NCBI GenBank assembly: GCA_041572755.1
Contig: JBFFRY010000007.1
Coordinates: 29,928-93,927, forward strand
Source of the DNA: Acidimicrobiia bacterium
GTDB taxonomy: Bacteria; Actinomycetota; Acidimicrobiia; Spongiisociales; UBA11373
Direction: 5' to 3'
DNA length: 64,000 nt
The translations under genes were made by a program, and so were the position numbers. The notes beneath the pieces were generated by a model. That model was not told where the DNA came from. It saw only the letters and a list, made by a program, of their open reading frames with translations, and did not search any database. Positions 1 through 51,248 of this stretch are shown here, in pieces (within the stretch, counting starts at the first letter, position 1; each line of letters opens with the position of its first letter).

Positions 1-1016
1 GATGCTCCGGGCTCGGGTCGAGGCAGCAGCCCGGCTCCATCGACGATAGGGCGGACCGCCTCCTCCCATTCGATGGCCATCACGTGGACGCCGGCGACGC
101 CTTCGATCTGCCGAATCTCGTTGATGAGGTCGATGCAGATCCGGATCCCTTCTTCCTTCCAGGCGGCGGTCCGGGCCTTCTTGTCCTCGGGGGTCAGCTC
201 GTCCTTGGACTTGCCGGCCCACTCCGCCCCGGCCTTCGTCATCCGGTCGATCAGGGGGTCGGGAACCAGGAGACCGGGGACGTTGTTCACCATGTAGCGG
301 GCCATACCGGGGCTCTTGAGCGGCCCCACCCCGGCCAGGATGTAGGCCTTTTCGTGGAGGCCCATTTCCCTCACCTTCTCCATGTAACCGGCAAAGGCGG
401 CAACGTCGTAGATGAGCTGGGTCTGGATGAAGTTGGCTCCGGCGGCCACTTTCTTGGCCAGCCGCATGGGGCGGTACTCGACCGGGTCGGCGAACGGGGC
501 GGCGGCTGCTCCGACGAAGAAGCGGGGCTCGGCGCCCTCGAACTCCTCACCGCACTGGAACACTTTGTCGTCGCGCATGGACGCCACCATCTGCACCAGC
601 TGGATGGAGTCGATGTCGAAGACGTTCTTGGCGGTCGGGTGATTCCCGAACTGCTGGTGGTCTCCGGTGAGGCACAGCAGGTTCTTCATGCCCAGGGCGT
701 GGGCGCCGAGCAGGTCTGCCTGGATGGCGAGCCTGTTGCGATCCCGGCAGGTCATCTGGATGACCGGCTCCAATCCCTCGTCGACCACGATGGTGCCGGC
801 GCCGATGCTCGACATCCGCACGATGGCGGTCTGGTTGTCGGTGATGTTGACGGCGTCGCACGTGCCCTTGAGGAGGCCGGCTTTCTCCCGGATCACCGCC
901 CCGTCGGCACTCTGGGGCGGCCCCAGTTCGGCGGTGACCGCGAAGTGGCCTCCTCGCAGCAAGCGCTCGAGCTGCGATCCGGCGAGTTCTCCGTTGGTGG
1001 GGGCTTCGGTGACCAT
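1..1016 (-). CDS. metF: Methylenetetrahydrofolate reductase MetF (start at 1016, C-terminal end runs off window start)
   Basis: Manual minus-strand translation from ATG 1016..1014 gives MVTEAPTNGELAGSQLERLLRGGHFAVTAELGPP...QMTCRDRNRLAIQADLLGAHALGMKNLLCLTGD. This is the MTHFR-family HLTC..D / L.GD core (compare E. coli HLTCIDAT...ALRGD). The metV-like gene sits immediately upstream, separated by 3 nt. The ORF track does not list it because it is open at the window edge. Confidence 0.75.
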   Translation of the reverse strand, partial: MVTEAPTNGELAGSQLERLLRGGHFAVTAELGPPQSADGAVIREKAGLLKGTCDAVNITDNQTAIVRMSSIGAGTIVVDEGLEPVIQMTCRDRNRLAIQADLLGAHALGMKNLLCLTGDHQQFGNHPTAKNVFDIDSIQLVQMVASMRDDKVFQCGEEFEGAEPRFFVGAAAAPFADPVEYRPMRLAKKVAAGANFIQTQLIYDVAAFAGYMEKVREMGLHEKAYILAGVGPLKSPGMARYMVNNVPGLLVPDPLIDRMTKAGAEWAGKSKDELTPEDKKARTAAWKEEGIRICIDLINEIRQIEGVAGVHVMAIEWEEAVRPIVDGAGLLPRPEPGA

Positions 1017-1019
1017 GAT

Positions 1020-1703
1020 CTACTCCTGCTCCGCGGCGATCCGGAGGTCGTCTCGGATGATGCGGCGGGGTCCGCCGTGGCGGGCCGCCTTCCAGTTCTT
1101 CGGTGGCTGCGGGTTCACGAGGATCTCGGTCCGACCGACGCTCGAGAGCCGGTCGTGGATCAACTGCCAGGCGCACGGCGTGGCCGGATCGACCTCGCAG
1201 TGGCCGTCCTCCGATCCACCGCACGGCCCGTTGAGCAGCGATTTGGCACACCGGGCGATGGGACAGATCCCGGCTGTGATCCCGAGGATGCACTCCCCGC
1301 AGGCGGCGCAGCGTTCCTCCCACAGCCCCTGCTCGGAGGGCATGCCCAGGAACGAAGTGTCGAGGCCGGGCACCACCCAGGCGTCGGGGAAGCGCTCCAC
1401 CATCGCCTGGACCCCTATCCCGCACGCCAGGGACACCACGACGTCGGCGTCGAGGATCCCTTCTCGCTGCTCGTCGAGGAACTCCCATTCGCACTGTCGC
1501 TGGATGTTGGTGTCGGTGATCGTCTTGGCAGCCCCGTCGAGCTTGGTCGACATGCGCAGCGAGGCGGCCAGGGTCTCCGCCTCCCGGGCGCCGCCGGCGA
1601 AGCAGATGGTGACGCACGTGCCGCATCCCGCCACGAGCACCTTCTCCGCATCGCCGACGAGACCCTTGATCTCCTCCAGCGGTTTCTGCTCGGCGATGAT
1701 CAT
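1020..1703 (-). CDS. metV: MetV-like MTHFR-associated Cys-rich (zinc-ribbon/FeS) small subunit
   Basis: Track ORF 1020..1760 with start trimmed to MIIAEQKPLEEIKG (ATG 1703..1701, by ORF arithmetic). It has the many Cys motifs (CGTC..C, CAACGEC, CPIARC, LLNGPCGG, GHCEVD) typical of the MetF C-terminal-like domain / MetV. Its start overlaps the mvhD-like stop by about 5 nt. Confidence 0.65.
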   Translation of the reverse strand: MIIAEQKPLEEIKGLVGDAEKVLVAGCGTCVTICFAGGAREAETLAASLRMSTKLDGAAKTITDTNIQRQCEWEFLDEQREGILDADVVVSLACGIGVQAMVERFPDAWVVPGLDTSFLGMPSEQGLWEERCAACGECILGITAGICPIARCAKSLLNGPCGGSEDGHCEVDPATPCAWQLIHDRLSSVGRTEILVNPQPPKNWKAARHGGPRRIIRDDLRIAAEQE

Positions 1704-1707: not shown

Positions 1708-2136
1708 TCACCCTCCTCCGCTCTCGGCGCCACGAAGTGGGTTGGGCCCCATCTCCGCAATCCGCTCGGTCATGTCGGTGGCGGCGGCGACGAACTCCGC
1801 CGCCATGGCGGCCGACATGTTGAACATCTCGACCCGTTCCCGTTCCAAGCCGATCTCGGCGAGCAGGTCCTGCACGCGTGCGATCCTCTTCCTGGCCTTC
1901 ACATTACCTTCCAGGTAATGGCAATCACCGGGCAGTCACCCGGCCGCCATGACGCCGTCCACGCCCTCCTCGAAAGCGAGGAGCACGGTCAGCACATCGA
2001 TGCGGCCGGTGCACGGCACCTCGACGACCTTCACCGCCGAGGGGTACTGCATGCGCAGGCCCCCGGCCAGATCGGCGGCCGCATAGGCACAGTGCTCACA
2101 GCAATAGGCCACGATGTTCAACTGGTCGTCGCTCAT
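1708..2136 (-). CDS. mvhD: MvhD-like [2Fe-2S] electron-transfer subunit with in-frame UGA (putative selenocysteine) at 1938..1936
   Basis: Track ORFs 1936..2136 (MSDDQLNIVAYCCEHCAYAAADLAGGLRMQYPSAVKVVEVPCTGRIDVLTVLLAFEEGVDGVMAAG*) and 1708..1902 (GTG-start ...KARKRIARVQDLLAEIGLERERVEMFNMSAAMAAEFVAAATDMTERIAEMGPNP) are in the same frame. The intervening codons read LPGDCHYLEGN. The joined product matches MvhD end to end (YCCxxCAY...RMQYP...EGADGVMVAGC-HPGDCHYxxGNxKARRRI...LGIEPERLRLEWIS). The TGA sits exactly at the conserved Cys of the AGC-HPGDCHY motif. ATGA overlap with the hdrL-like stop (2133..2136). Confidence 0.65.
1902..1920 (-). other. SECIS-like stem-loop 15 nt 3' of the in-frame UGA (mRNA sense 5'-CAUUACC UGGAA GGUAAUG-3')
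   Basis: Perfect 7-bp stem with a 5-nt loop, read directly from the sequence. Its position, about 15 nt after UGA, is in the range of bacterial SECIS elements. Confidence 0.45.
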
Positions 2137-5100
2137 CGAGATGGCGCTCCTATCGAGTCCAGAGGTATGAAGCCTTCAGGGGCGTGACCGACCAGGGCGG
2201 CCACCTTGGCGGTGGCCTGGGAGTCGGTGTAGTGCATCAACTGGATGGCGTGGCCCGGGCACTCCGCCACGCAAACCCCGCACCCACGACAGATGGCGGC
2301 CTCGATGGTGGCCGCCCCGAGGATGCCACCGATGCCGGGCTGACTCGCATCGATCCGGGGCACGCCGAAGGGGCACACCCGCACGCAGGTCAGGCATCCG
2401 GTGCACAACTCGTGGTCGACCACCGCAACCTGCCCACCGGCCAGCAGCGTGTCCTTGCTGAGAACCCGGGCGGCTCTGGCGGCCGCGGCCTGAGCCTGGA
2501 TCATCGTCTCGTCCGACAGCTTCGGGTAGTGGGCCATCCCGGCCATGAACACCCCGGCGGAGGAGAAGTCGACCGGCCGCAGCTTGACGTGCGCCTCCAA
2601 GAAGAAGCCGTCGGCGTCGATGCTGCATTTGAAGAAGTTGGCCAGTTCGTCGCTGTCGTCGCGGGGCACGACCGGCATGCTCAGCACCACCAGATCGGGC
2701 TCGAGCTCCATGGCCCGATCGAGGATCGGATCTCGGGCCCGCACCTGCAGCGATCCGTTGGCTTCCACCACCGGCTTCTCGTCCGGGTCGTAGTGGACGA
2801 AGAGCACGCCCTTGGACCGCGCCTCGGTGTAGGACCGCTCCTTGAACCCGTACACCCGAATGTCGCGATAGAGCACCACCACCTGGGCGTCGGGCTTGCG
2901 CTCCTTGAGCGCCAGGGCGTTCTTGAGCGCGATCGTGCAGCAGATGCGGCTGCAGTACTGCTCGGCCGGACCGACACATTGGATCATCACGACCGAATCG
3001 GGGACGTCACCGGCTTCGAGGCGCTGCTCGAACTCCTGCTGGGTGACGATGCGGGGGTCGGTGCCGTAGCCGTACTCCGGCCCCCGGTACTCCCGGCCAC
3101 CGGTGGCGAGGATCGTCACCCCGTGATCAATCGAGACGCGGGCGCCGTCGGCCTTCTCCACGGTGCTCGTGAAATTGCCCATGAACCCCGAGGAACCGAC
3201 CACCCGGCTCCCGAGATGGATGTCGACCAGCGGGTTTCGCTCGACGCGGCCGGACAGTTCGGCGAGGAGATGCTGGGGCTGCTTGCCCTGGAACGGCATC
3301 CGCACCCTGCCGAGGTTGCCGCCGAGCGTCTCCTCGCGTTCGACCAGGTCGACCGGGTAGCCCTGGTCGGCAAGAGAAGCTGCAGCGGTCATGCCGGCGA
3401 CCCCGCCGCCCACGACCAGCGCCCGTTTCGTGACCGGGACCTCGAAGGTGTGTTGCGGTTCCAACAGGGCCGCCCGGGCCACGGCCATGCGCACCAGGTC
3501 CCGTGCCTTGGCGGTGGCGGCCTCGTTGTCGTCGGAGTGCACCCACGAGCACTGATTGCGGATGTTGGCCATCTCGAAGAGGTACGGATTGAGGCCGGCA
3601 CTGCGCAGCATGTCACGGAAGAGCGGGCCGTGGGTCAGCGGGGTGCAACTGGCGACGACCACCCGGTTGAGCTGCTGCTCCTGGACCTGTTCGGCGATGT
3701 GCTTCACGCTGTCCTGCGAGCAGGTGTAGAGGTTGGCCTCCGCATAGGCCACCCCGGGCAGATCCCCGGCGTATTCGGCCACGTCGGGGACATCCAGGTA
3801 CCCGCCGATGTTCGACCCGCAGTGGCACACGAACACGCCGATCCGCAGGGCCTCATCGGTGATGTCCCGTTCGTCCGGGAAGCTGGGGTCGGTGGTGAGA
3901 GAGAAGCGAGATTCGCCGAGTCGGGTGGCGGCGGCGGCCGCCGCCCCGCTCGCCTCGATGACCGACTCGGGGATGTCCTTGGGCTCCCGGAAGGGCCCGA
4001 CGGCGTAGATGCCGGGCTTGCTGCTCTCGAGCGGGTTGAACTGGGCGGTGTGGCAGAAGCCGTACTCGTCGAGCTCGATGCCGAGGCGGGTGCCGAGCTC
4101 CTTCACCGAATCGGAGATCTCCATGCCGACCGACAGCACCACCAGGTCGAAGGGCTCCTCGTGGAGCCGGCCGGCCTCGTCGTTGTAGCGGACCAACAGA
4201 TCCTTGGTCGCCGGATCCTCCCGCAGTCCGCTGATCCGGCACCGGGTGTACTCCACGCCGTAGCGATCCCGGGCCCGCTCGAAATAGCTCCAGTAGCCCT
4301 TGGAGAACGCCCGCATGTCCATCATGAACACCTGGATGTCGAGGTCGGGCTCGTGCTCCTTGGCCATGATCGCTTCCTTGGTGGCATACATGCAGCACAC
4401 CGCCGAGCAGTAGTCCCGGGTCTGGTCGCGTGACCCGATGCACTGGAGGAAGGCGACCCGTTTCGGCTTCTCATGATCGGACGGCCGGACGACGTGGCCG
4501 GTGGTCGGTCCCGAGGCCGACAGCAGGCGTTCGAACTGCAGAGCCGTGATCACGTTGGGGTAGCGACCGAGCCCGTACTCCTCGGCGAGCTCGGCCTTGT
4601 AGATCTGGTAGCCGGGAGCCAGGATCACCGCACCGACATCGATCTCGGAGACCGTGGCGATCATGTCGTGGTCGACGGCGTTGACCCCGCAGGCAAAGGC
4701 ACAGCTCATGCACTCCGAGCACACTCCGCAGGCCAGGCATCGGGAGGCTTCGGCCCGGGCCGATTCGTCGTCGTAGCCCCGCTCGATCTCGGCAAATGAG
4801 TGAATCCTCTCGAGCACCGGCAACTCGGGGAGCGGCACCCGGGGGCGGCGCTCGATGCGGCCCGAGGCCACTCGCCGCGCCAGCTCCTCGTCGGTGGGTC
4901 GCGCCACCGGGACTTCGGGTGGCGGTGGCGGCTCGAGATCCTCCCCCTGCAGGTAGCGGATGAGTGAGGCCGCCGCCTTGTGGCCGCTGTCGACGGCTTC
5001 GATGACGAACGAAGTGCCGGAGACGCTGTCTCCGGCGGCGAACACCCCTGGGCGGCTGGCGGCCAGGGTGTGAGGATCGATGGAGATCGTGTTCTGCCTG

Positions 5101-6665
5101 GTGACACCGACCCCGGCATCGTCGGGGATGAACGCCAGGCCCGCTCGCTGACCCACCGAGAAGATCACCGTGTCGCACTCGAGCACGTGCAGGGAGTCGT
5201 CCACCGTGGTGACCGAGAGGCGTCCGTCGTCCCCGAAGCTGAAGGAGGCGACTCGCCGGCACTCCACGGCGGTCACGTTGCCCTCGTCATCGCTCAGGAT
5301 CTGCTCGAACGTCCTCCCGGGGTGGACGGTGATCCCCTCGGCCTCGGCGGCTTCGATCTCCCAGGGGTGGGCCGGCATCTCGTCGCGGCCCTCCAGGCAG
5401 GCCATGTGGACGTCGCGACCCAGCCGCACCGCACTGCGGGCCACGTCGATCGCCACGTTGCCGCCACCGAGCACCAGCACCTTCTCACCGAGAGGCGGCA
5501 CGTCGGCATCGGCCTCGTCGTCGTAGTGGCCCAGCCGCATGTCCCGCAGGAATCGGGTGTTGATGAGAACCCCGGGGAGGTCGGCACCGGGGATGGGGAG
5601 GCGGATGCCTTCGTGAGCGCCGACGGCGATGAGGATCGCGTCGTGCCCCGCTTCGAAGAGGTCATCGAGGTTGTCGACGGTGTGATTCAGTTCGAGCCGA
5701 ACACCCAGGTCGACGATGTCCCGGACTTCACGTTCCACGACCTCGCTGGGCAGCCGAAACTCGGGCACGCCGAGGCGGAGCATGCCGCCGGCCACCGGCA
5801 TCGATTCGTACACCGTGACCGCATAGCCGGCCATGGCGAGGTCCTGAGCGGCGGTGAGGCCACACGGCCCGGCTCCGATGATGGCGATGCTCTCGTCGTG
5901 GATGCGGGGCACCGGCTCGACCGGTCGGCGGGGCTCGGCGTAGACCTTGTCGGTGACGAAGCGCTTCAGCGCCCGAATGTTGATCGGCTCGTCGACCCGC
6001 CCCCGGGTGCAGGCGATCTCGCAGCGGTGGTTGCAGATCCGCCCGCAGATGCCGGGGAAGGGGTTGTCGAGCTTGATGACCCGCATGGCGTCGTCGTAGC
6101 GGCCCTCGCCGATGAGCGCGATGTAGCCCTGGGCCCGCTGCCCGGCCGGGCAGGCATCCCGGCATGGGGCCACGCCGAGCTTCTCGATGGCGAAAGCGTT
6201 GGGTACCGCCTGCGGATACAGCTTGAAGGCGGCCCGCCGGTGAGCGAGGCCCTCGTTGAACTCGTCGGGGATCACGATCGGGCAGACGGTGGCGCAATCG
6301 CCGCAGGCGATGCAGACGTCGGTGTCGATGTAGCGGGGGTGGTGCTTCACCTCGACGGTGTAGTTGCCGACCTCGCCGACGATGTCGAGGACCTCGCTGT
6401 CGGTGAGCAGCTCGATGTTGGGGTGGCGGCCGGTCTCCACCAGCTTGGGGGAGATCGTGCACATGGCACAGTCGTTGGTGGGGAAGGTCTTGTCGAGCTG
6501 GGCCATCTTTCCGCCGATGGCCGACTGCGACTCGACCAGATAGACCTTGAAGCCCTGATCGGCGAGATCGAGAGACGCCTGCATGCCGGCGATGCCCCCG
6601 CCGACCACCATCACGGCGCCGGTCGGTTCGCCGTTCATCGACCCCATGTGCCGGAAACCATCCAT
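2133..6665 (-). CDS. Giant HdrA-family flavin/FeS fusion protein (HdrL-like): HdrA module interrupted by a GltD/NfnB-like NAD(P)H-FAD module, a second HdrA module, and a C-terminal 2x[4Fe-4S] ferredoxin
   Basis: Track ORF 2133..6719, 1528 aa in the track and about 1510 aa from the trimmed start. Start trimmed to MDGFRHMGSMNGE (ATG 6665, preceded by GAGGGGG).
- N-terminus: VMVVGGGIAGMQASLDLADQGFKVYLVESQSAIGGKMAQLDKTFPTNDCAMCTISPKL, the HdrA FAD site.
- GltD-like insert: CRDACPAGQRAQGYI...NPFPGICGRICNHRCEIAC, then IAIIGAGPCGLTAAQDLAMAG and VLVLGGGNVAIDVAR.
- HdrA signature CIGSRDQTRDYCSAVCCMYATKEA.
- Second module RALVVGGGVAGMTAAASLADQG...CVGPAEQYCSRICCTIALKNA.
- C-terminal CTGCLTCVRVCP...CRGCGVCVAECP. 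Confidence 0.75.
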   Translation of the reverse strand: MDGFRHMGSMNGEPTGAVMVVGGGIAGMQASLDLADQGFKVYLVESQSAIGGKMAQLDKTFPTNDCAMCTISPKLVETGRHPNIELLTDSEVLDIVGEVGNYTVEVKHHPRYIDTDVCIACGDCATVCPIVIPDEFNEGLAHRRAAFKLYPQAVPNAFAIEKLGVAPCRDACPAGQRAQGYIALIGEGRYDDAMRVIKLDNPFPGICGRICNHRCEIACTRGRVDEPINIRALKRFVTDKVYAEPRRPVEPVPRIHDESIAIIGAGPCGLTAAQDLAMAGYAVTVYESMPVAGGMLRLGVPEFRLPSEVVEREVRDIVDLGVRLELNHTVDNLDDLFEAGHDAILIAVGAHEGIRLPIPGADLPGVLINTRFLRDMRLGHYDDEADADVPPLGEKVLVLGGGNVAIDVARSAVRLGRDVHMACLEGRDEMPAHPWEIEAAEAEGITVHPGRTFEQILSDDEGNVTAVECRRVASFSFGDDGRLSVTTVDDSLHVLECDTVIFSVGQRAGLAFIPDDAGVGVTRQNTISIDPHTLAASRPGVFAAGDSVSGTSFVIEAVDSGHKAAASLIRYLQGEDLEPPPPPEVPVARPTDEELARRVASGRIERRPRVPLPELPVLERIHSFAEIERGYDDESARAEASRCLACGVCSECMSCAFACGVNAVDHDMIATVSEIDVGAVILAPGYQIYKAELAEEYGLGRYPNVITALQFERLLSASGPTTGHVVRPSDHEKPKRVAFLQCIGSRDQTRDYCSAVCCMYATKEAIMAKEHEPDLDIQVFMMDMRAFSKGYWSYFERARDRYGVEYTRCRISGLREDPATKDLLVRYNDEAGRLHEEPFDLVVLSVGMEISDSVKELGTRLGIELDEYGFCHTAQFNPLESSKPGIYAVGPFREPKDIPESVIEASGAAAAAATRLGESRFSLTTDPSFPDERDITDEALRIGVFVCHCGSNIGGYLDVPDVAEYAGDLPGVAYAEANLYTCSQDSVKHIAEQVQEQQLNRVVVASCTPLTHGPLFRDMLRSAGLNPYLFEMANIRNQCSWVHSDDNEAATAKARDLVRMAVARAALLEPQHTFEVPVTKRALVVGGGVAGMTAAASLADQGYPVDLVEREETLGGNLGRVRMPFQGKQPQHLLAELSGRVERNPLVDIHLGSRVVGSSGFMGNFTSTVEKADGARVSIDHGVTILATGGREYRGPEYGYGTDPRIVTQQEFEQRLEAGDVPDSVVMIQCVGPAEQYCSRICCTIALKNALALKERKPDAQVVVLYRDIRVYGFKERSYTEARSKGVLFVHYDPDEKPVVEANGSLQVRARDPILDRAMELEPDLVVLSMPVVPRDDSDELANFFKCSIDADGFFLEAHVKLRPVDFSSAGVFMAGMAHYPKLSDETMIQAQAAAARAARVLSKDTLLAGGQVAVVDHELCTGCLTCVRVCPFGVPRIDASQPGIGGILGAATIEAAICRGCGVCVAECPGHAIQLMHYTDSQATAKVAALVGHAPEGFIPLDSIGAPSR

Positions 6666-6764
6666 CCCCCTCGGTTGATCTCGGGGATATTGTCGCCCGG
6701 AACGACCACTCCCCCCCACGGGCTTTCGGCCCTATTGGGACCGCCGTCCGGCGGCGAATCGGGT

Positions 6765-19375: not shown

Positions 19376-19900
19376 TCAGCCGGCGAATGTCAGGGTGAGG
19401 TGGTAGCCGGTCAGCACCAAGAAGCCCCCGAGCAGCAGTAGTGAGGCCTCGAGCACCCGACGGTAGCGACGCAGCGTCCACAAACCCATCGCAACCGCCC
19501 CGACCAGGGTCAGCTTGAAGACGGCGGCCACCACCGGATCGAAGCCCAGCAGCTCGGCCATCACCGGGTTGAGTTCGGTGGCTCCGAGACCGAGGGCCCG
19601 TACGGTGAGCAGCAGATCCACGGCATTGAGGAGCACCACCGCTCCGAGGACCGCGGCCACGGCGCCGGGACGATCCCGGTAGTTGATCAGCAGCCGGGCG
19701 CCGGCCGCGCGGATCGGTCCGGGCCCGGCGAGGCGGCGGTCGAAGCCGCTTCTCCGCTCCGGATAGTGCAGGGAGGCCCGCCGCACTCGGCGGTCCGCCA
19801 CGCGTCGGTTCTCGATGGTGCTCTCCACCGACTCCTCCACTACGGAGGGTAGCCGATCAGTATCCCTCAGTCGTCGTGGCGGGTCGGAGGGGATCGCCAC
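19376..19900 (-). CDS. Hypothetical membrane protein (Arg-rich cytoplasmic N-terminus plus about 4 TM helices)
   Basis: 174 aa. ...LLINYRDRPGAVAAVLGAVVLLNAVDLLLTV... Confidence 0.4.
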   Translation of the reverse strand: MAIPSDPPRRLRDTDRLPSVVEESVESTIENRRVADRRVRRASLHYPERRSGFDRRLAGPGPIRAAGARLLINYRDRPGAVAAVLGAVVLLNAVDLLLTVRALGLGATELNPVMAELLGFDPVVAAVFKLTLVGAVAMGLWTLRRYRRVLEASLLLLGGFLVLTGYHLTLTFAG

Positions 19901-20026
19901 CGAGTCCGCTCCGGGTCGACGGGTGGTGCGGCGCTTGCCGTCGCGGGCGCCGAGGGTCGCCTCGTCCCTCTCCTCCCCGGCACTGACCCGGGACGCAACG
20001 GGGCGGTCCCGCTATGCTGCCCGGCT

Positions 20027-22579
20027 TTGGGAGGGGATATCACCACGATCACCGTGAACGGCTCGGCCCGCGAGGTCGGGAATCACCACCCTCACCTCCT
20101 CGCCGCCCTGCGCGAGGAACTGGGTGTCCTGTCGCCGAAGGACGGGTGCTCGCCGTCGGGGCAGTGCGGGGCTTGCACCGTCCTGCTCGACGGCAAGGCC
20201 ACCGTGAGCTGCCAGGTCTCCCTGGAGAAGGCGGAGGGGAAGTCGGTCACCACGCTCGAAGGGATCGATGCCGAAGAACGGCGGCGCTACGCCGAGGCGT
20301 TTGCGGCGCATGGAGCGCTCCAGTGCGGCTACTGCATCCCCGGGATCGTGGTGCGGGCCAAGGCGCTGATCGATGCCAAGGGCACAACGTTGAATCGCCA
20401 AACCATCGAGGGCCGGCTCGGGGCCCACCTGTGCCGCTGCACCGGGTATGTGCGGATCGTGGACGCCATCGAGGATCTGGCGCAGGGCAAGAGCCCCACA
20501 CCCGAAACGGTCGGTGGCGTCGGGTCCTCGGGGGTCCGCTACCAGGCCGCCGATCTCGTGCTCGGCGACAAGCCCTACGTCGACGATCTGCGCCTCCCCG
20601 ACCTGCTCCACGGTGCCGTGCGGCTCGCCGATCACGCCCGGGCCGACGTGCTCTCCATCGACACCTCGGCGGCCGAAGCCGTTCCCGGCGTAATCCGCGT
20701 CCTGACCGCCGCCGACGTTCCCGGGGAGCTGCGGGTCGGGATCATCGAACGGGACTGGCCGGTGTTCATACCCGAAGGCGGCCGGACGTCCTACCTGGGG
20801 GACGTGCTGGCCTTCGTCGTCGCAGGAGACCGCCAGACCGCCCGTCGGGCGGCCGAGCTGGTCGAGATCGCCTACCGCCCGCTGCCGCCGATCACCGACG
20901 CCGCGGCGGCTCTCGACGCCGAGGATGCGGTGTGGGGCCTAGAAGGCAACGTGCTGTCCCGCTCCGGATACCGCCGGGGTGACGTCGATGCCGCACTCGA
21001 AGCCAGCGCCCACACCGTCCACGAGGTCTTCGAGACCCAGCGGGTCGAGCACGCCTTCTTGGAGCCGGAGTCCACGGTCGTCGCTCCCCGCGACGACGGG
21101 ATGCTCCACGTGTGGTCGGGGGGCCAGGGGGTGTGGGACGACCGCAACCAGATCGCCTCGGTGCTCGGGGTCGAACCCGACCGCGTCGTCGTCGAGCTCG
21201 TCTCCAACGGCGGCGCTTTCGGCGGCAAGGAGGACATGTCCAATCAGGCGCAGACCGCCCTGGCGGCCTGGGTGCTGGGGCGGCCGGTCAAGTGCACCCT
21301 GTCGCGGGAAGAGTCGTTCCTGATGCACGCCAAACGGCACCCCATCCGGCTCGAATACTGGGCCGGCTGCGACGCCGAGGGGCGGCTCACCGCGCTGCGG
21401 GCCCGCATGGTGGGGGACTCCGGCCCCTACGCCTCGGTCGGTGCAAAGGTCCTCGAGCGGGCGGCGGGTCACGCCACCGGCCCCTACGCCGTCCCCAACG
21501 TGGACGTCGAAGCGGTGGCGGCCCGCACCAACAATCCGGTGTGCGGGGCGTTCCGCGGCTTCGGTGCCAACCAAGCGCACTTCGCCGTCGACGGGGTGCT
21601 GGACCGTCTCGCCGAGCGTGTCGGAATCTCGGGCTGGGAGATCCGCGCCCGCAACGTGGTGGAACCCGGCATGGAGTGGGGTCCCGGTCAGGTCATGGAC
21701 GAAGGAGCCCGGGGGGCGCGAGCCTGTCTCGACGCCGTCAAGGACGCCTACGACGAGGCGGTGGCGGCCGGCAAGGCCGTGGGCGTCGGCCTGGGGCTGA
21801 AGAACTCAGGGCTCGGCAACGGCGCCGTCGAGATCGCCCGGGCCGTCGTCCACTTCCGGGACGACGGCATCGTCGAGGTTCGCCACTGCTGGACCGAGAT
21901 GGGCCAAGGGATCCACACCGTGGCCCAGCAGGTCGCCGTCGAGGAGCTGGGGGTGGCCCCGGAGCGCGTCGAGGTGATCGTCGACACGACCCGGGAGCTC
22001 GGTGCCGGACAGACCACCGGGAGCCGGGGAACACTCATGGGCGCCGGTGCCGTTGCGGATGCCTGTCGGGTCGCCAGGGAGGCCGGGTGCCAAACCGGTG
22101 TCGACTACGTCGGGGAGTACCGCATCGACTGGACCAACAACATCGACGAGGGCGTGCCCAACCCGGTGATCCACTCCGCCTTCGGCTACGCCGCCCAGGT
22201 GGTCGTGGCCGACACCGAGACCGGTGAGGTGGAGAAGGTGTTGGCCGCCCACGACGTCGGCCGGGCCGTCAACCCCACGCTGTGCCGCAGCCAGATCGAA
22301 GGCTCGGTGCACATGGGGCTCGGTTATGCCCTCACCGAGGACTTCCCGGCGGACGCCGAGGGGCGTCCCACCACCATGACCCTCCGCAGCCTGGGGATCA
22401 TTCGCGCCAAGGACGTCCCGGAGATCGAGGTGATGCTGGTGGAGGTGCCCCAGCCCAAGGCCCCGTACGGCGTGAAGGGGGTCGGTGAGATCGGCCTGGT
22501 GCCCACCGCCGGGGCGGTGGCCGCGGCGCTGCATGCCGCCGATGGGGTGTGGCGCACCCGGCTGCCCATGAAGGCATGA
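20027..22579 (+). CDS. Mop-type molybdopterin aldehyde oxidoreductase (N-terminal 2x[2Fe-2S] fused to xanthine-dehydrogenase-family Mo-binding domain, no FAD domain)
   Basis: 850 aa. CSPSGQCGACTVLLDGKATVSCQ and QCGYCIPGIVV...CRCTGY (CoxS-like) are followed by a CoxL/XdhB-like catalytic domain. Exact start is uncertain (GGGAGGGG overlaps the ATG). Confidence 0.75.
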   Translation: MGGDITTITVNGSAREVGNHHPHLLAALREELGVLSPKDGCSPSGQCGACTVLLDGKATVSCQVSLEKAEGKSVTTLEGIDAEERRRYAEAFAAHGALQCGYCIPGIVVRAKALIDAKGTTLNRQTIEGRLGAHLCRCTGYVRIVDAIEDLAQGKSPTPETVGGVGSSGVRYQAADLVLGDKPYVDDLRLPDLLHGAVRLADHARADVLSIDTSAAEAVPGVIRVLTAADVPGELRVGIIERDWPVFIPEGGRTSYLGDVLAFVVAGDRQTARRAAELVEIAYRPLPPITDAAAALDAEDAVWGLEGNVLSRSGYRRGDVDAALEASAHTVHEVFETQRVEHAFLEPESTVVAPRDDGMLHVWSGGQGVWDDRNQIASVLGVEPDRVVVELVSNGGAFGGKEDMSNQAQTALAAWVLGRPVKCTLSREESFLMHAKRHPIRLEYWAGCDAEGRLTALRARMVGDSGPYASVGAKVLERAAGHATGPYAVPNVDVEAVAARTNNPVCGAFRGFGANQAHFAVDGVLDRLAERVGISGWEIRARNVVEPGMEWGPGQVMDEGARGARACLDAVKDAYDEAVAAGKAVGVGLGLKNSGLGNGAVEIARAVVHFRDDGIVEVRHCWTEMGQGIHTVAQQVAVEELGVAPERVEVIVDTTRELGAGQTTGSRGTLMGAGAVADACRVAREAGCQTGVDYVGEYRIDWTNNIDEGVPNPVIHSAFGYAAQVVVADTETGEVEKVLAAHDVGRAVNPTLCRSQIEGSVHMGLGYALTEDFPADAEGRPTTMTLRSLGIIRAKDVPEIEVMLVEVPQPKAPYGVKGVGEIGLVPTAGAVAAALHAADGVWRTRLPMKA

Positions 22580-22638
22580 TCGGGGGCCGGTCGCTCCCTG
22601 CATAGACTCGCGGCCTCGGGTGCAGGAAGAGAGGCGGC

Positions 22639-23511
22639 ATGACCGTGTCCCAGTGCATCTTGCGATCCCGCGAGACCGAGGTGGTCATCGGCCCCGATCG
22701 ACCTTTCGTGATCGTTGGGGAGCGGATCAATCCCACCAACCGCAGGGCCCTCACCGAGGCACTGATCGCCGGCGACATGAGCGTCGTGCAGCACGATGCC
22801 AGAGCTCAGGTCGAAGCCGGTGCCCGGGTGGTCGACGTCAACGTCGGAACTGCACTCGGCAATGAGCCGGAGATCATGCCGGTGGCCGTCGCCGCCGTCC
22901 TCGACGTTGTGGATGCACCGCTGGCGATCGACTCCGCCGATCCGCAGGCCGTGGAGGCAGGCCTGGCGGCCTATCGGGAGATCTGCGGCCCCGACGCCAA
23001 GGCGCTCATCAACTCCACCACCGCCGAGGCCGCCCAGCTGGATGCGATCCTGCCGTTGGCGGCGGAATACCAAGCGGCGGTGATCGGCCTCACCAACGAC
23101 GAGCGGGGTATCCCCGCAACGGTGGAGGAGCGTTTCCAGCTGGCCGCAATGATCGCCGATCGGGCGGTGGCGGCCGGGATTCGACGCGACGACGTGGTCA
23201 TCGACGGCCTCACCCTCACGGTGGGTGCCGATCAAGCGGCGTCCGTGGTCACGATGACCGCCACCGAGCGGATCTCCCGGGAGCTCGGTCTCACGACCAT
23301 CTCGGGTGCCAGCAACGTGTCGTTCGGGCTTCCGGGGCGCCGTGAGCTCAACAACGTCTTCCTGGCGATGATGGTTTCCAGAGGGCTCAACGCGGCGATC
23401 ACCAACCCGCTGCACCCCGAGATCGTCACCACCGTGCTGGCCGCCGACCTGTTCATGGAGCGGGACCCCCACGCCAGGTCGTGGATCACCGCTCACCGGG
23501 CCGAACCGTGA
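22639..23511 (+). CDS. Methyltetrahydrofolate:corrinoid methyltransferase (MeTr/AcsE-like pterin-binding protein)
   Basis: 290 aa. ...FVIVGERINPTNRR...VDVNVG...LINSTT...IGLTNDERGIP...TISGASNVSFGLPGRRELNNVFLAMMVSRGLNAAITNP; collinear with MeTr motifs. Confidence 0.75.
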   Translation: MTVSQCILRSRETEVVIGPDRPFVIVGERINPTNRRALTEALIAGDMSVVQHDARAQVEAGARVVDVNVGTALGNEPEIMPVAVAAVLDVVDAPLAIDSADPQAVEAGLAAYREICGPDAKALINSTTAEAAQLDAILPLAAEYQAAVIGLTNDERGIPATVEERFQLAAMIADRAVAAGIRRDDVVIDGLTLTVGADQAASVVTMTATERISRELGLTTISGASNVSFGLPGRRELNNVFLAMMVSRGLNAAITNPLHPEIVTTVLAADLFMERDPHARSWITAHRAEP

Positions 23512-25475
23512 CCGGGGGCCACACCGTGGTCTTCCAGCCCTCCGGATCCCGGGGGGAGATTCCAGACGGGATCCATCTCCGCGCTGCCGCTCGCAGCCTC
23601 GGGGTCGAGATCGAGAGTGTGTGCGCCGAGATCGCCACCTGCGGCAAGTGCCTGGTGCTGGTCGAGGACGGCACCCGAGGGGGGGTCGCCTCGGCACCGG
23701 AGCACCTCACCGCGATGGGCCGTGCGGAGCGGGACTTCATCGAGAGACGGGCGGCGACGTGGGAGCGCATGGGCTACGACGCCGCCCGGCTGCGCTTGTC
23801 GTGCCAGGCGAAGGTGGCCGGGGACGTGGTGGTGTACGTTCCCGAACGGAGCCGGGGCGACCGCCAGATCGTGCGCAAGGCACCGACCGACCTTCCCATC
23901 GAGGTGCGTCCCACGGTGCGTTGGTACTACCTGGAGCTCGAGCCCCCCTCGCTGGAGGATCCCCTCGGTGACTCCGAACGGGTGGCGGACGGCCTCGCCG
24001 AAGCCGCGGCACGAGTCGGGATGTCCGATGAACGGGCGGTACCCGGTGAGGTTACGTTCGCGTTCGCCGTGTTGCGACGGATGGCCGCAACCCTGCGGGA
24101 AGGTGACTGGAAGGTGAGCGTGGCGGTCCGCAACGGTCGGGAGGTCATCGACATTCGGCCCGGCTACCACGACGAGGCCTACGGGGCCGCGGTCGACCTG
24201 GGCTCGACTGCCGTCGCGCTGTACCTGTGCGATCTCGAGTCCGGGGAGGTGGTGGCCGCCGAGTCGATGATGAATCCGCAAACCGTCTTCGGCGATGACG
24301 TGATGACCCGCATCACTCATCAGATCAGCGACCCGGACGGTGTGGAGGCGTTGCGGACCGGTGCCGTCGATGCGGTCAACGCCTTGTTGGGGCGGGCCCT
24401 CGGCGACCGCGACGCCGCCGACGTGCTCGATGTGGTGGTCGCCGGCAACACCACCATGCACCACCTCCTGCTGGGGTTGACCACGCGGTATCTGGGAACG
24501 GCGCCGTTCGTGCCGACGGTGCAGCGGGCTCTCGATCTCCCGGCCGACGCCGTCGGCTTCGGCATCAACCGGGCGGCCGACGTCCATCTGCTGCCGATCG
24601 CCGCCGGCTTCGTCGGGGCCGACACCACGGCCGTGCTGCTCGCCGAAGAGCCCCACCACCGGGACGAGAAGCGTCTCATCATCGACGTCGGCACCAACGC
24701 CGAGCTGGTGCTCGGCAACCGGGACGGCCTGATCTGCACCTCGACTCCCACCGGTCCGGCGTTCGAGGGCGCCCACATCGAGTACGGGATGCGAGCGGCC
24801 CCCGGCGCCATCGAGCAGGTCACGATCGACCCGGCGACGCTCGAGCCGACCTACTGGGTGATCCCCGAACCCGGGGAGGAACCGGGCCTCGCCAAGGGCA
24901 TCTGCGGGTCGGCGATCATCGGTGGGGTCGCCGAGATGTTCCGGGCGGGGATCATCGATTCTCACGGCCGGTTCGTCGAGGGAACCCGTTCACCGCGGGT
25001 TCGGCGCGGCGATCTCGGCTGGGAGTACGTGCTGGCCCTCGAGGAGGAGACCTCGATCGGGCGGGACATCCCCATCACGATCCAGGATGTGCGCCAGGTC
25101 CAGCTCGCCAAGGCTGCTCTGTATGCCGCCGCCCGGGTCCTGCTGAGGGAAGCCGGGCTCGAGAGACCCGACGAGATCGTCTTGGCAGGCGCATTCGGCG
25201 CCCGGATCGACCCCACCCAAGCCCTGCTGCTGGGGATGATCCCCGACTGCCCCGTTGCGACGATACGTGCGGTGGGGAACGCCGCCGGGGACGGGGCCCG
25301 GATCGCCCTGCTCAATCGGCACCGGCGGGGGGAAGCCGCCGAGGTGGTGAGCCGGCTCCAGCGGGTCGAGCTGCCGGTCGATCCCGAGTTTCAACAGGAG
25401 TTCCTGGCGGCGCTCGAACTGCCCCACGCCTCACACCGCTTCACCAGCGTGGCCGGGATGCTCCCCGAGGGTTAG
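23508..25475 (+). CDS. RACo-type reductive activator of corrinoid proteins ([2Fe-2S] ferredoxin + ASKHA ATPase domain)
   Basis: GTG start with GTGA overlap on the upstream stop. N-terminal plant-type ferredoxin CAEIATCGKC, then a large ASKHA/DUF4445-like body. Confidence 0.7.
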   Translation: MTGGHTVVFQPSGSRGEIPDGIHLRAAARSLGVEIESVCAEIATCGKCLVLVEDGTRGGVASAPEHLTAMGRAERDFIERRAATWERMGYDAARLRLSCQAKVAGDVVVYVPERSRGDRQIVRKAPTDLPIEVRPTVRWYYLELEPPSLEDPLGDSERVADGLAEAAARVGMSDERAVPGEVTFAFAVLRRMAATLREGDWKVSVAVRNGREVIDIRPGYHDEAYGAAVDLGSTAVALYLCDLESGEVVAAESMMNPQTVFGDDVMTRITHQISDPDGVEALRTGAVDAVNALLGRALGDRDAADVLDVVVAGNTTMHHLLLGLTTRYLGTAPFVPTVQRALDLPADAVGFGINRAADVHLLPIAAGFVGADTTAVLLAEEPHHRDEKRLIIDVGTNAELVLGNRDGLICTSTPTGPAFEGAHIEYGMRAAPGAIEQVTIDPATLEPTYWVIPEPGEEPGLAKGICGSAIIGGVAEMFRAGIIDSHGRFVEGTRSPRVRRGDLGWEYVLALEEETSIGRDIPITIQDVRQVQLAKAALYAAARVLLREAGLERPDEIVLAGAFGARIDPTQALLLGMIPDCPVATIRAVGNAAGDGARIALLNRHRRGEAAEVVSRLQRVELPVDPEFQQEFLAALELPHASHRFTSVAGMLPEG

Positions 25476-27628
25476 TAGCGCCCCCGCTCCAGTTGGGTGC
25501 TCGAGTCGGCGAGGTCCCGATCACGAGCCGGGAAGACCTGCACGGCACACGCCTTGAACTCCGGGATGAGGGCCTCGGGGTCGAGGGCGTCGTTGGTGAG
25601 CAGATTGGCGGCCGCCTCGGCGAAGTGGAACGGGATGAACACCACCCCCACCGTCGACTTGGGGGTGACCCGGGCCCGGAGGACGACCTCTCCTCTCCGC
25701 GACGTGACCCGGACCGCCCGCCCGTCGCCGATGCCGTGGAGTTCGGCGTCGGCGGGGTGGATCTCGCAGGTCGCCTCGGGCCACAGCTCATCGAGCGCCG
25801 AGTTGCGGGTCATCGTGCCGCCGTGCCAGTGCTCGAGGACGCGTCCGGTGGTGAGCACGAAGGGGTACTCGTCGTCGGTTTGCTCCATCGCCGGGACGTA
25901 GTCGAGGGGAGTGAACTTGCCCCGGCCCGAGGGGAATTCCTCGTCGAACAGGAACGGGGTGCCCGGGTGAGTCTCGTCCCACACCGGGACTTGGAGCCCC
26001 TCCTTCGCGATGCGGCCGTAGGTGATGCCTCGATACTCGGGCACCACCGAGCCGAGTTCGGCCAGGATCTCGGAGGGCTCGGCGTACTCCCATCCGGCGG
26101 TCCGGGGACGGCCCAATCGGGCCTCGAGCCGGGCGGCCAGGTCGCACAGGATCTCCCAATCCGGTCGCGAATCGCCCACCGGGGGGTGAGCCGGCCGGAC
26201 CCGCTGCACCCGGCGGTCGGTGTTCGTGAACGTGCCCGCCTTCTCGGCGAACGAGGTTGCCGGCAGGAAGACGTCGGCGAAGGCGCCCGACTCGTTGATG
26301 AAGAGGTCCTGGGCGACCAGGAACTCGAGCTGCTCCATGTGGTGGCGGGTCGCGTTGAGGTTCGGTTCGGTCATCATCGGGTTCTCACCCATGATGTAGA
26401 GGGCGCGGACGCCGCCGGGGCCGGCCTCCGACAGGATCTCGGTGGTGGTGAGGCCCCGATCCCGGCTCAGGCCTCCCGGCTCAACCCCCCATGCCGTCTC
26501 CCAGCGCTCGGCATTGGCGGGGTCGTCGACCGCCATGTAGCCCGGGTAGTGGAACGGCATGGCGCCCATGTCGGAGGCCCCCTGCACGTTGTTCTGGCCT
26601 CGCAGCGGGTTGAGGCCGGTGCCCCGGCGCCCCACGTTGCCGGTGAGGAACGCCAGGTGGATGAGCGACAGGGCCGAGGCGGTGCCGTGGGACAGCTGGG
26701 AGATCCCCATGCCCCAGTAGACGGCGCCCCTCTCGGCCCCGGCGTAGAGCCGGGCGGCCCGGCGGATGTCGTCGGCGGGTACGCCGGAGACCGACTCGGC
26801 GAACTCCGGTGTGAAGGATGCCAGAGAAGCGATGTACTCCTCGTATCCCTCGGTTCGGGCCGCGACGAACTCGGTGTCGACGAGCTCCTCGTCGACGATC
26901 ACGCGAGCCATGGCACCGAACACCGGCACGTTGGTGCCGGGCCGGAGCGGAAGCCACAATTCGGCGAGATCCACCAGCTCGATGCGGCGGGGGTCGACGA
27001 CGATCAGCTTGGCGCCGTTGTTGACCACGGCCGCCTTCATCTGCAAGCCGATGATCGGATGGTTCTCGGTGGTGTTCGAGCCGGTGACGATGAACACGTC
27101 GCTGTCGGCCACCTCGGCGGCGGTGTTGCTCATCGCCGATGAGCCCAGCGCCTGCTGCAGCGCCACCACCGAGCCGGCGTGACACAAGCGGGTGCAGTGG
27201 TCGACGTTGTTGGTGCGGAACAGGGCCCGCCACATCTTCTGGAGCAGATAGTTGTCCTCGTTGGTGGCCTTGGCGCAGCAGTAGCAGGCCATCGCGTCCG
27301 CACCGTCGCGGCGGTAGATCTCGACGAGGCGGTCGGCGGTGTAGTCGAGGGCTTCCTCCCAGGACACCTCCCGCCACTCGGCACGGTCGAAGGCTTGGGT
27401 CCGGGTGCCCGGCTTCTGGGGCGTTCGGCGGATCATGGGTGTGGTCACCCGGTTGGGGTGATAGACGAAGTCGTACCCGAAGCGGCCTTTGACGCAGAGA
27501 TTCCCGGCGTTGACGACGGAATCGAACGGCGATGTGACCTTGTAGATGAAGTCGTCGCGGATCCCCAACTCGAGCTTGCAGCCGACGCCGCAGTAGGGAC
27601 AGGTGGTGGTGACGGTGCGGTCGCTCAT
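25472..27628 (-). CDS. fdhA: Formate dehydrogenase catalytic (Mo-bisPGD) subunit, Cys-type; lacks the NuoG-like N-terminal FeS domain
   Basis: Track ORF 25472..28360 trimmed to [21 protein letters not shown] (ATG 27628). [15 protein letters not shown] active-site region with Cys at the Sec position. Confidence 0.85.
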
Positions 27629-28320
27629 CGCCGTCTCCGGCGGCGCCGAGTGAGGGTGGCGGCGGTGACCTCCTCCGGGGTCATGCCCCGGTCGAGCAGC
27701 CACTCGCGGCGCGGCTTGAGGGCCCCGGTGGGGCAGACACCCAGGCACTGCCCGCAGAAGACACAGGTGGTCTGTGGGATCGAGGCGTCGAAGAAGGTGC
27801 CGATCTGGGTGTCGTAGCCCCTCCCGGAGAAGTTGATGGCGAAGGTGTACTGGGCGTCGTCGGCACACACCTGCACGCACCGCCAGCACAGGACGCACTG
27901 CGAGTAGTCCCGCACGTACATCGGGTTGTCGTCGATCACCTCGGTGCGGCGGCGGCGGGCATCGGGGAAGCGGTCCGGGTCGGCCCCGTAGTCGGCGATC
28001 ATCCGGGTGATCGAAGGGGCCTCCTCGAGGTCGACGGTGGAAGCCAGCATCTCGAGGAGGGTGCGCCGTGCTCGGTCGACCCGATCGGATCGAGTGGTCA
28101 CCTCCATGTCCGGGGCCACTTCCACCACGCAGGACGGCTGGAGTCGCCCCATGCCCCCGACCTCGACGACACACACCCGACAGATGGCATTCGCCGTCGT
28201 GGCCGGGTGCACACACACCGAGGGCACGTCGGATCCGGCCGCCCGGGTCGCCTCGAGGATGGTGGTGCCCGGCGCCACGCTGACCGGTGTGCCGTCGATG
28301 GTGAGGGTCACCTGCGTCAC
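27625..28320 (-). CDS. Separate NuoG-like [2Fe-2S]/[4Fe-4S] subunit of formate dehydrogenase (split FdhA N-terminal domain)
   Basis: Track ORF 27625..28536 trimmed to a GTG start at 28320 ([24 protein letters not shown]), which forms a GTGA overlap with the nuoEF stop. ...[19 protein letters not shown]...[11 protein letters not shown]...[20 protein letters not shown] overlap with the catalytic subunit. Confidence 0.7.
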
Positions 28321-30029
28321 GGCGTCTCCTCGAAGAGCTCCGGCCAGTGTTGCATGGCACTCAGCACGGCAGTGGCGGCGGTCTGGCCGAGTCCGCACAG
28401 CGAGGTGTCGGCCATCGTCCAACCGATGTCCTGGAGCCGGTCGACGTCGCCGGCCTCCGGTCTGCCGGCGGCGATGCGGTCGAGCACCTCGGCCTGGCGC
28501 TCGGTGCCCATCTGGCACGGGTAGCACTTTCCGCACGACTCGTGGGCGAAGAAGCGACCGAGGCGGGCGAGGACGTCGCGAAGGTCGCGGGTCTCGTCGA
28601 AGACCATGACCACCCCCGAGCCCAGGCTGAGGCCCTCGGTCCGGAGGTCTTCCATCGTCAGCGCCACATCGAGCCGGTCGGCGGTCACGAACGACCCGGC
28701 GGCCCCGCCGAGGAGCACCGCCTGCACGTCCCGCTCACCGGGGAGGCCTCCGCCGTGCTGATAGACCAGCTCCCTGATCGTGACTCCGAAGGGGAGCTCG
28801 TAGAGGCCCGGCTTGGCGACGTCCCCGCTGAGACAGAAGAGCTTGGTGCCCGGCGACCCTTCGGTGCCGAGTCTCCGGTAGGCGTCGGCCCCTTCTCGGA
28901 TGATCGGGGGCACGTTGCACAGTGTCTCGACGTTGTTGATGACGGTGGGCTTGCCGAACAGGCCGTGACTGGTGGGGAAGGGGGGCTTGACCCGGGGGAA
29001 CCCGCGCTTGCCCTCGATCGACTCGAAGAGGGCCGTTTCCTCGCCGCAGATGTAGGCCCCGGCACCGACCCGGATCTCGATGTCGAAGGAGAACCCCGAA
29101 CCGAGGATGTCGTCGCCGAGATAACCCGCTCGGCGCGCCTCTTCCATGGCCCGCTCGGCGACCGGCACGATGTAGGGGTACTCCCCGCGCACGTAGAAGT
29201 AGCCCCGGGAGGCGCCCACGGCGAACCCGGTGATCACCATTCCCTCGACGGTCAAATGGGGGCTGTCGATGAGGAGCGCCCGATCCTTGAAGGTCCCCGG
29301 CTCGGACTCGTCGGTGTTGCAGACGACGAACTTGGGCCGGGCCGGTTCGTTGCGGGCGGCTTCCCACTTCACGCCCGTGGGGAAGGCGGCGCCGCCCCGG
29401 CCCACCAACCCGGCCGCCGTCACCTCGGCGATCACCGCCTCCGGCCCCATCTCCAGGGCCCTGCGGAGGGCCCGGTAGCCACCGCATGCCTCGTAGTCCC
29501 GGATCCCGGTGGTGTCCTCACTGCACACCGCGGTGAGGACACGCTGCGACCCGTAGATCACCGACGGGGGGTGGGTGGTGACGTCGTCGGCGAGACGCCC
29601 AGGGTCGTCGGGGTCGGCGGCGATGGCGACGCACTCGTCGACGAGGGCGGCGGGAGCGTGATCACACAGACCCAGGCAGGGCACCCGCTCGATGGTGATG
29701 GCTCCGTCGGCGCTGGTTCCCCCCTCGACGACCCCGGCAGCGGCACACAGGCCCTCGATCAGGCGGTCGGCTCCTCGCAGCGCGCAGGTGGGGTCGCCGC
29801 ACACCCGAACGACCCGTTCACCGACGGGACGTCCGTAGAACAGGGTGTAGAACTCGATCACCCCGTGGACGTCGGCGAGGGGCACCTTGAGCGCCCGCCC
29901 CACCTCGGCGGCCACCTCCTCGGGGAGCCATCCGTGGACCTGCTGGGCGGCGTGGAGCGCGGGCAGCAGCCCGGCTCGCCCCATCGGGACGAAGGGGGCC
30001 AGGACCTCCCGGAGTGCAGTGTCCGACAC
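28317..30029 (-). CDS. Fused NuoE-NuoF-like NAD(H)-binding flavoprotein subunit of formate dehydrogenase
   Basis: 570 aa. N-terminal thioredoxin-like [2Fe-2S] region ([11 protein letters not shown]...CLGLCDHAP), then [13 protein letters not shown]...[13 protein letters not shown] (NuoF/51-kDa). Confidence 0.8.
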
Positions 30030-30171
30030 GAAGGTGGAGCATAGGAAGCCTGGCCTTCGTTTTCAGCGTCCTCGGGCGAGGGATGCGGGGGGCATTCCGA
30101 TCCGACGCGGCAATCTGGGTATGACGCGCCCCCTCATTGGACGGTGGACGACCGATGGGGCGAAGCGTTCC

Positions 30172-38191: not shown

Positions 38192-38280
38192 GGATTCTCC
38201 CTTGCGGCCGCCACGGGGCGGCGACTCTCAACCTCTCAGCGTGGTGAGACTACCACTCTGCGTGGTCGATGCCAAGGGGA

Positions 38281-39696: not shown

Positions 39697-39701
39697 CTGG
39701 G

Positions 39702-40535: not shown

Positions 40536-40655
40536 CCCCGTATCGTCGCCCCAACCGCGGGCGACGGCCCAGGGCCGGAAGGCCCGCCCCGGGGAGTCGA
40601 GTGGCCGGGGTGACCGGCGGAGAAGCGGTGGTCCGGGGTCGCATCCTCGGCCGTG

Positions 40656-50253: not shown

Positions 50254-50370
50254 CCGGGTTCCGGTGGTGGCGGGGCGCCTGCCACCGGGGCGAGCTGCAC
50301 CGTCCGACTGCCGGTCCGTGCCCGGGGCGGTCGGTAGGGTGGTGAGCCGCCGACGTCGGTTTGGAGGCCC

Positions 50371-51147: not shown

Positions 51148-51248
51148 AGATCGGGTCGAAAGACCCTCCGAACCGTCCGGGGCCCATGAGTAGCCTTCCC
51201 CCTGATGGTGGACAGGATCTGTCGACGCCCGATCTTGCGGGCGCGCCT

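Follow-up and report, generated by a model that had tools for sequence, protein, structure and literature searches.

Two short open reading frames of 66 and 64 amino acids lie in the same frame on the minus strand of a 64-kb stretch of Acidimicrobiia DNA (64,000 nucleotides, analysed as a whole and hereafter called the window), separated by a single TGA and 11 sense codons. The question raised by this locus is whether they are what remains of a broken gene, two genes in their own right, or one mvhD gene in which an internal UGA codon is read as selenocysteine (Sec). An earlier note on this DNA, made from the letters alone, had put forward the last of these, and we consider it very probable that the two ORFs are indeed one intact mvhD gene whose UGA is decoded as selenocysteine. 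The gene, its UGA and its neighbors are placed as follows.

1708..2136, minus strand: mvhD (FlpD/MvhD family, PF02662), 142 codons including one in-frame UGA
1936..1938, minus strand: in-frame UGA, predicted selenocysteine codon, residue 67, at the Cys/Sec column of the family
2133..6719, minus strand: hdrA-like gene, up to 1528 aa, partner of MvhD (Pfam; 5odc_A, 1e-189)
1020..1703, minus strand: metV (DUF5981; zinc/iron-sulfur subunit of MetVF; PF12225, E 1e-35)
1..1016, minus strand: metF (MTHFR), ending at the first bases of the window

The mvhD frame starts with an ATG at 2136..2134 and runs to a terminal TGA at 1710..1708, the TGA at 1938..1936 being its sole interruption. Behind the latter come CTG CCC GGT GAT TGC CAT TAC CTG GAA GGT AAT, i.e., LPGDCHYLEGN, and directly after these codons the second ORF begins with GTG at 1902, so the shared frame and the 11-codon gap had been described correctly. 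The joined product has 142 residues including the UGA position, one fewer than the 143 given earlier, and it is collinear with MvhD over its whole length, as had been claimed: it covers profile positions 1-123 of 123 in PF02662 (E 8e-47; score 158.7 bits, cut-off 22.3, Cys standing in for the UGA), and its matches to MvhD/VhuD chains of solved structure have E-values of 1e-31 to 1e-40 (8.5e-40 for the MvhD chain 7bkb_F). The residues around the UGA read IDVLTVLLAFEEGVDGVMAAGU(Sec)LPGDCHYLEGNVK. At the UGA column the solved MvhD chains 7bkb_F and 5odc_D carry Cys, and the second non-standard residue (“X”, Sec) of the VhuD chain 9sfi_K aligns with the UGA, which bears out the earlier placement at the Cys/Sec column of VhuD. 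The column is likewise Cys, within GCLPG(D/N)CH(Y/F), in 17 of 17 close full-length MvhD homologues, which have C12, C13, C16, C42 and C72 without exception, column 67 being the sixth Cys column. The window protein keeps the other five conserved cysteines and has the UGA in place of the sixth. No accessible statement was found in the literature on Cys67 ligating the [2Fe-2S] cluster. Toward the C-terminus, populations differ in the tail by an indel that keeps the frame and the stop codon (the window, 1708-1740, having …PLRGAESGGG and the loci L001/L003 having …PLRVHRPESAGG).

The surrounding genes are arranged in the order hdrA-like, mvhD, metV and metF, with a fused hdrCB gene (CCG domain) just outside the window, and judging from this content they appear to form an operon for a methylene-tetrahydrofolate reductase of the HdrABC-MvhD-MetVF type. 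The stop codon of the hdrA-like gene overlaps the mvhD start by four bases (ATGA), and metV begins 5 nt after the mvhD stop. The metV gene order is the same in fourteen further loci (L001-L010 and L200-L203); in related loci an MTHFR gene (PF02219) and then a CCG-domain HdrCB-like gene follow, the full order including the CCG-domain gene being present in L001-L003, L198, L201 and L202. The HdrA homologue (1510-1528 aa) contains an inserted NfnB/GltD-like NAD(P)H module at residues ~183-690, with Fer4_20 and Pyr_redox_2 domains and PDB matches to NfnI/GltD. It has no in-frame UGA, and its motif DCAMC is of the Cys type. The window HdrA (2133-6719, minus strand) also resembles the “HdrL” HdrA/glutamate-synthase fusions of Desulfobacterium autotrophicum.

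Immediately 3′ of the UGA, two nested RNA structures are predicted.

1902..1920, minus strand: SECIS core hairpin CAUUACC-UGGAA-GGUAAUG, spanning codons His73 to Val79
1888..1935, minus strand: extended imperfect stem-loop (54-nt fold), tentatively a lower SECIS stem

The core hairpin consists of CAUUACC (1920-1914), UGGAA (1913-1909) and GGUAAUG (1908-1902), and admits two readings: a stem of 7 bp capped by a loop of 5 nt, or a stem of 8 bp capped by the triloop GGA. The bSECIS model of Zhang and Gladyshev describes an apical loop of 3-9 nt on an upper stem of 4-16 bp, a G within the first two loop positions (pattern N1-G-[G|U]-N-N2), a UGA-to-loop distance of 16-37 nt and a minimum free energy of -7.5 kcal/mol or lower (PMC13188914). 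The mvhD hairpin agrees with 4 of these 4 criteria, having the loop U-GGA-A (3-5 nt, as the outer U and A can pair), a stem of 7-8 bp, a UGA-to-loop distance of 22-23 nt and a free energy of -8.1 or -15.9 kcal/mol, and the earlier suggestion that a hairpin starting 15 nt past the UGA is positioned like a bacterial SECIS therefore stands. The second UGA of mvhD (1710..1708) has no such hairpin. Folded alone, the 23-nt hairpin reaches -8.1 kcal/mol (z -2.95; 1 of 200 shuffles as good), and the 54-nt stem-loop reaches -15.9 kcal/mol, its lower-stem pairs being weakly conserved across 24 sequences. Stability as sole proof was rejected: the 54-nt stem-loop (z -1.64) and the 66-nt stretch at 1880..1945 (z -0.89) lie near shuffled sequences, and the mean MFE over 60 nt does not differ between Sec-type and Cys-type mvhD genes. 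Rfam gave zero matches at gathering score in the window and, at E <= 10 within 1700-2200, one match at chance level, so that no curated model fits the hairpin.

We infer that the hairpin is bound by SelB. In the mechanism that we propose, it would act as a bacterial SECIS, to which SelB-GTP-Sec-tRNA(Sec) would bind while the ribosome stands at the UGA, and Sec would be inserted at codon 67 instead of termination. The full 142-residue MvhD would then be made, with Sec replacing one of the six conserved cysteines of this [2Fe-2S] protein, which would donate electrons to the HdrA flavin or accept them from it, and the second UGA at 1710..1708, lacking the hairpin, would terminate translation.

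If the hairpin belongs to the UGA, the two should occur together across the family. We searched one genome per species with the pattern GGN-TGA-NNN-CCN-GGN-RAY-TGY-CAY-TWY and obtained at least 120 loci; of the 123 matches listed, 120 proved to be true mvhD genes that carry the UGA at this column and stay open for 30-274 codons after it, mostly 70-95. As a control, the same pattern with TGY for TGA was searched in metagenome contigs and yielded 59 open-frame Cys-type matches (one of them not an MvhD), with statistics computed on 51 unique genes. Within +10..+48 nt, a stem of 7 or more unbroken base pairs is present in 105 of 118 listed Sec genes, compared with 6 of 51 among the Cys genes (p 7e-17). 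The hairpin is thus found in the orthologues that carry UGA and is mostly missing from those that carry Cys, which is how the comparison proposed in the earlier note turned out. Among the matches listed, Sec-mvhD genes come from Desulfobacterota, Bacillota, Chloroflexota, Cloacimonadota, Planctomycetota and Actinomycetota. In three of the loci, from Delongbacteria, Cloacimonadota and Armatimonadota MAGs (L050, L098, L109), two separate Sec-mvhD genes lie within one 8-kb locus.

The codons that build the stem tell the same story at finer resolution. The window gene belongs to a “U-L/M-PGDCHY” clade, comprising Chloroflexi and one Acidimicrobiia MAG among the matches listed, and all 23 listed genes of this clade use His-CAT, Tyr-TAC, Gly-GGT and Asn-AAT at the hairpin; the CAT/GGT/AAT combination occurs in 23 of 23 of them versus 4 of 51 Cys genes (p 2e-15). 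Where Cys is encoded, the same positions are free to vary (His CAC 37, CAT 22; Gly GGC 28, GGA 14, GGT 10, GGG 6; Asn AAC 31, AAT 27). The window genome has a GC3 of ~0.88, yet GGT GAT CAT GAA GGT AAT are used at the hairpin, a succession of AT-ending codons that is anomalous at this GC3. In L179, the closest high-GC orthologue with Cys, the codons here are CAC TTT CTG GAG GGC AAC, and the hairpin is absent. Compensatory covariation within the window's clade is almost nil (RNAalifold), the seven core pairs being invariant or nearly so. Taken as a comparison of codon choices, these data show the putative SECIS hairpin to be kept by selection at synonymous codon positions.

In the larger clade, “U-HPGDCHY”, two other hairpins occupy the same codons, GCCAUUACC...GGUAAU and GCCACUA-UGU-UAGUGGC; what accompanies the UGA is structure, and not a particular sequence. 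Within the first 60 nt after the UGA in L011-L130 the two are mutually exclusive, type A using CAT/TAC/GGT/AAT and type B using CAC/TAT/AGT/GGC with its loop 3 nt further 5′, and they would represent two ways of building a SECIS over a single protein motif. A separate observation concerns four Cys-type mvhD genes from metagenome contigs (L145, L155, L159, L190) that retain CAT TAC (C/T)(T/A)G GA(A/T) GGT AAT, L159 having TGT at the position of the Sec genes' TGA. By their codons these four look like recent Sec-to-Cys conversions that may carry a fossil SECIS, as has been described for FdhA and HesB (PMC1794560).

The two clades also differ in their neighborhoods. Among the matches listed, metV adjoins Sec-mvhD in 17 of the 23 loci of the window's clade and in 1 of 97 loci of the other (Sporotomaculum syntrophicum), and a MetF lies beside Sec-mvhD in 15 of 23 related genomes (tblastn with the metF ORF of the window). 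An hdrA-type gene adjoins Sec-mvhD in 106 of 120 listed cases.

Turning to the machinery for Sec insertion, the earlier note had reported no selA, selB, selD or tRNA-Sec in the window, and the ARAGORN, Rfam and Pfam scans came back empty as well: ARAGORN detected no tRNA in the 64 kb, hence no tRNA-Sec there, and no SelA, SelB or SelD domain was detected among ~43 window ORFs (Pfam). Neither did we find selA, selB, selD or tRNA-Sec in ~150 kb of related contigs, including flanks past both window ends, and 20 related loci scanned for tRNAs gave no tRNA-Sec either. Among bacterial selenoproteins, FdhA is the most common. The window's two formate dehydrogenase alpha subunits, at 25472-28360 (minus strand) and 53317-56220 (plus strand; HCARLCHASTV), have Cys at the catalytic position, as had been noted before. 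With both FdhA and the HdrA being of the Cys type, the window holds no second selenoprotein gene that would corroborate Sec use.

As for the remaining gene content, the window has 69% GC and carries Wood-Ljungdahl-related genes at 19853-30062, 38281-40655 and 50338-56220. The set includes the two Cys-type formate dehydrogenase alpha subunits, each beside NuoE/F-like genes, together with FdhD, an NfnAB-like pair, a CoxL/xanthine-dehydrogenase-family gene and a pterin-binding methyltransferase beside a RACo corrinoid activator. Two further genes, at 36422-38227 (minus strand) and 60726-62375 (plus strand), encode secreted-looking proteins with RTX calcium-binding nonapeptide repeats. One of the two has a metallopeptidase M12 domain, a gene for a chagasin-type peptidase inhibitor (I42) adjoins the one at 60726-62375, and both RTX genes seem unrelated to mvhD.

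The Cys-type state of the other candidate selenoenzymes in the window favors the strongest competitor of Sec decoding, in which the UGA is read through without selenocysteine, e.g., by a near-cognate tRNA for Trp or Cys, and the hairpin merely slows termination. UGA followed by C is a weak termination context, and the mvhD UGA is followed by C. A variant of this explanation, in which such decoding operates only under selenium limitation or after the lineage has lost its Sec machinery, falls under the same estimate, and we regard the two jointly as highly improbable. The hairpin fits a SelB-type bSECIS in both loop sequence and spacing, and it is shared with Sec-using lineages (Desulfobacterium autotrophicum and Moorella thermoacetica, related genera of which are among the listed matches). 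Moreover, Cys is only one mutation away and is freely used by relatives, so that the retention of UGA implies a benefit specific to Sec.

Slightly less probable still is that a nonsense mutation killed mvhD and left the downstream ORF as a decaying remnant. Such a pseudogene would sit well with the closest full-length database homologues all having Cys and with the Sec machinery not being visible locally. The distribution of the TGA speaks against it, as the codon is common to diverged populations, to the four nearest orthologous loci and to at least 120 species. Twenty-three contigs (from three JGI metagenomes, three NCBI MAGs, one ENA assembly and two Logan runs) encode precisely the same 66-aa N-terminal fragment, and all ten loci that were read (L001-L010) have the same TGA, the same hairpin and an open frame behind it. 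Among these ten is a second population, L001/L003, whose divergence from the window is dS ~0.19. A search for relatives of the neighboring MetV protein led to the four nearest orthologous loci (L200-L203, MetV 79-85% identical), in which mvhD is split likewise, with the UGA and the same hairpin. Sequencing error and pseudogenization had both been named beforehand as ways in which the proposal could fail; against both, the UGA recurs across numerous independent assemblies and in each of these four loci.

The 75 codons downstream of the UGA are, in addition, open and constrained. By the method of Nei and Gojobori, the window differs over these codons from L001 at dN 0.042 and dS 0.187, from a Sec orthologue in an Acidimicrobiia MAG (L079) at dN 0.167 and dS 0.59, and from the Cys orthologue L179 at dN 0.165 and dS 1.76. 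The resulting dN/dS of ~0.1-0.3 is like that of the 66 codons before the UGA, which argues that the downstream half is translated and under purifying selection. Together with a UGA-linked hairpin maintained at synonymous sites and the position of mvhD within an otherwise intact, translationally coupled operon, this is not what a decaying gene would look like. A reassigned genetic code was also considered and ruled out: TGA ends ~27 of 42 complete window ORFs and is their commonest stop codon, so the code is the ordinary one. The mvhD TGA is the only TGA in the window with coding-like sequence of a real gene on both sides, another recoded-UGA candidate, at 17245 (plus strand), having been rejected since it is antisense to an M20 peptidase gene.

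As for the gene calls, every database copy is annotated by gene callers as two ORFs, which is what one would expect if MvhD were a split protein assembled from a 66-aa and a 64-aa polypeptide (the latter from the GTG at 1902). We find this very improbable, given that such a protein would lose LPGDCHYLEGN, the most conserved motif of the family, along with the invariant Cys72, and that the codons of this region are in frame and conserved in all listed Sec genes. The called start of the second ORF also varies between copies, as it would for an artefact: in L001-L010 and L200-L203 the 66-aa ORF is accompanied by a second one of 54, 55, 59, 64 or 66 aa. The split mvhD gene calls are a systematic annotation artefact. 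Finally, although TGA is one base from TGC or TGT, an error of sequencing or assembly hiding a true Cys codon can practically be dismissed, since the same TGA occurs on all 23 contigs from independent samples and assemblers.

We therefore regard the window mvhD, read through its UGA as Sec, as what it most probably is, and the gene is a newly recognised member of the known Sec-FrhD/MvhD/VhuD family. What is new is modest, namely the host lineage and the linkage of a Sec-MvhD to metVF; in principle nothing is added, since both Sec-MvhD and the bacterial SECIS are textbook cases. The result has practical consequences nonetheless. A Sec-mvhD could pass for a missing or broken gene in metabolic reconstructions of Actinobacteria and Chloroflexi with the Wood-Ljungdahl pathway, and CAT TAC CTG GAR GGT AAT provides a simple nucleotide marker for curating the window's Sec-mvhD clade. 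It is also implied that the lineage requires selenium for its MetVF/Hdr methylene-tetrahydrofolate reductase. Because both formate dehydrogenases and the HdrA of the window are Cys-type, one may go further and speculate, as a long shot, that MvhD of this reductase is the only selenoprotein of the lineage or one of few, and that the Sec machinery is kept mainly for it. If so, this machinery would serve an electron-bifurcating enzyme of the Wood-Ljungdahl pathway by supplying selenium to the set of cysteines that surrounds its [2Fe-2S] centre, and acetogenic-type C1 metabolism would depend on selenium in a way as yet undescribed for the MetVF/Hdr complex.

FrhD/MvhD/VhuD is a catalogued prokaryotic selenoprotein family (PMC1794560, PMC2702500, PMC9312934, PMC13188914), was the third most frequent bacterial one in 2006, and has Sec/Cys conversions on record in both directions (PMC1794560). 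Moorella thermoacetica has one Sec-FrhD (PMC1794560), Desulfobacterium autotrophicum has four Sec-MvhD genes (MvhD1, 2, 3, 5) and a full Sec machinery (PMC2702500), and Syntrophobacter fumaroxidans has multiple Sec-FrhD/MvhD copies (PMC2702500, PMC1794560). With these bacterial Sec-FrhD/MvhD proteins (COG1908, PF02662) the window gene shares the family, the UGA at the same Cys column and a hairpin directly downstream. It differs in belonging to a “U-LPGDCHY” clade shared with Chloroflexi, outside the “U-HPGDCHY” clade of Desulfobacterota and Firmicutes, in being linked to metVF, and in its Acidimicrobiia-like actinobacterial host, the nearest named relatives of the locus being Acidimicrobiia MAGs.

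Methanococcal VhuD is homologous over the full length (E 1.6e-35), and the window UGA corresponds to its second Sec. VhuD differs, however, in a further Sec at the CxxU position, which is Cys16 in the window protein, and the enzymes that VhuD serves are a [NiFeSe] hydrogenase and a heterodisulfide reductase instead of a methylene-tetrahydrofolate reductase. Some archaeal members of the family carry two Sec residues, and archaeal SECIS elements lie in the 3′ UTR, unlike the coding-region hairpin seen here (PMC13188914). The latter is instead comparable to the SECIS of E. coli fdhF and to the bSECIS in general, being a stem-loop in the coding region just 3′ of the UGA with a small apical loop that has G[G/U] at its first positions, although it has no sequence similarity to the fdhF element.

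The literature that we examined contains no description of a Sec-MvhD linked to metVF: PMC7325909 makes no mention of selenium or selenocysteine, hence none for the MetVF-linked MvhD, and the accessible portion of PMC5736913 applies selenocysteine only to formate dehydrogenases, not to the MetVF-linked MvhD. Compared with known HdrABC-MvhD-MetVF operons, the window locus has the same genes in the same order, i.e., hdrA, mvhD, metV, metF and a fused hdrCB, and is distinguished from them by the NfnB/GltD-like NAD(P)H module inserted in its HdrA.
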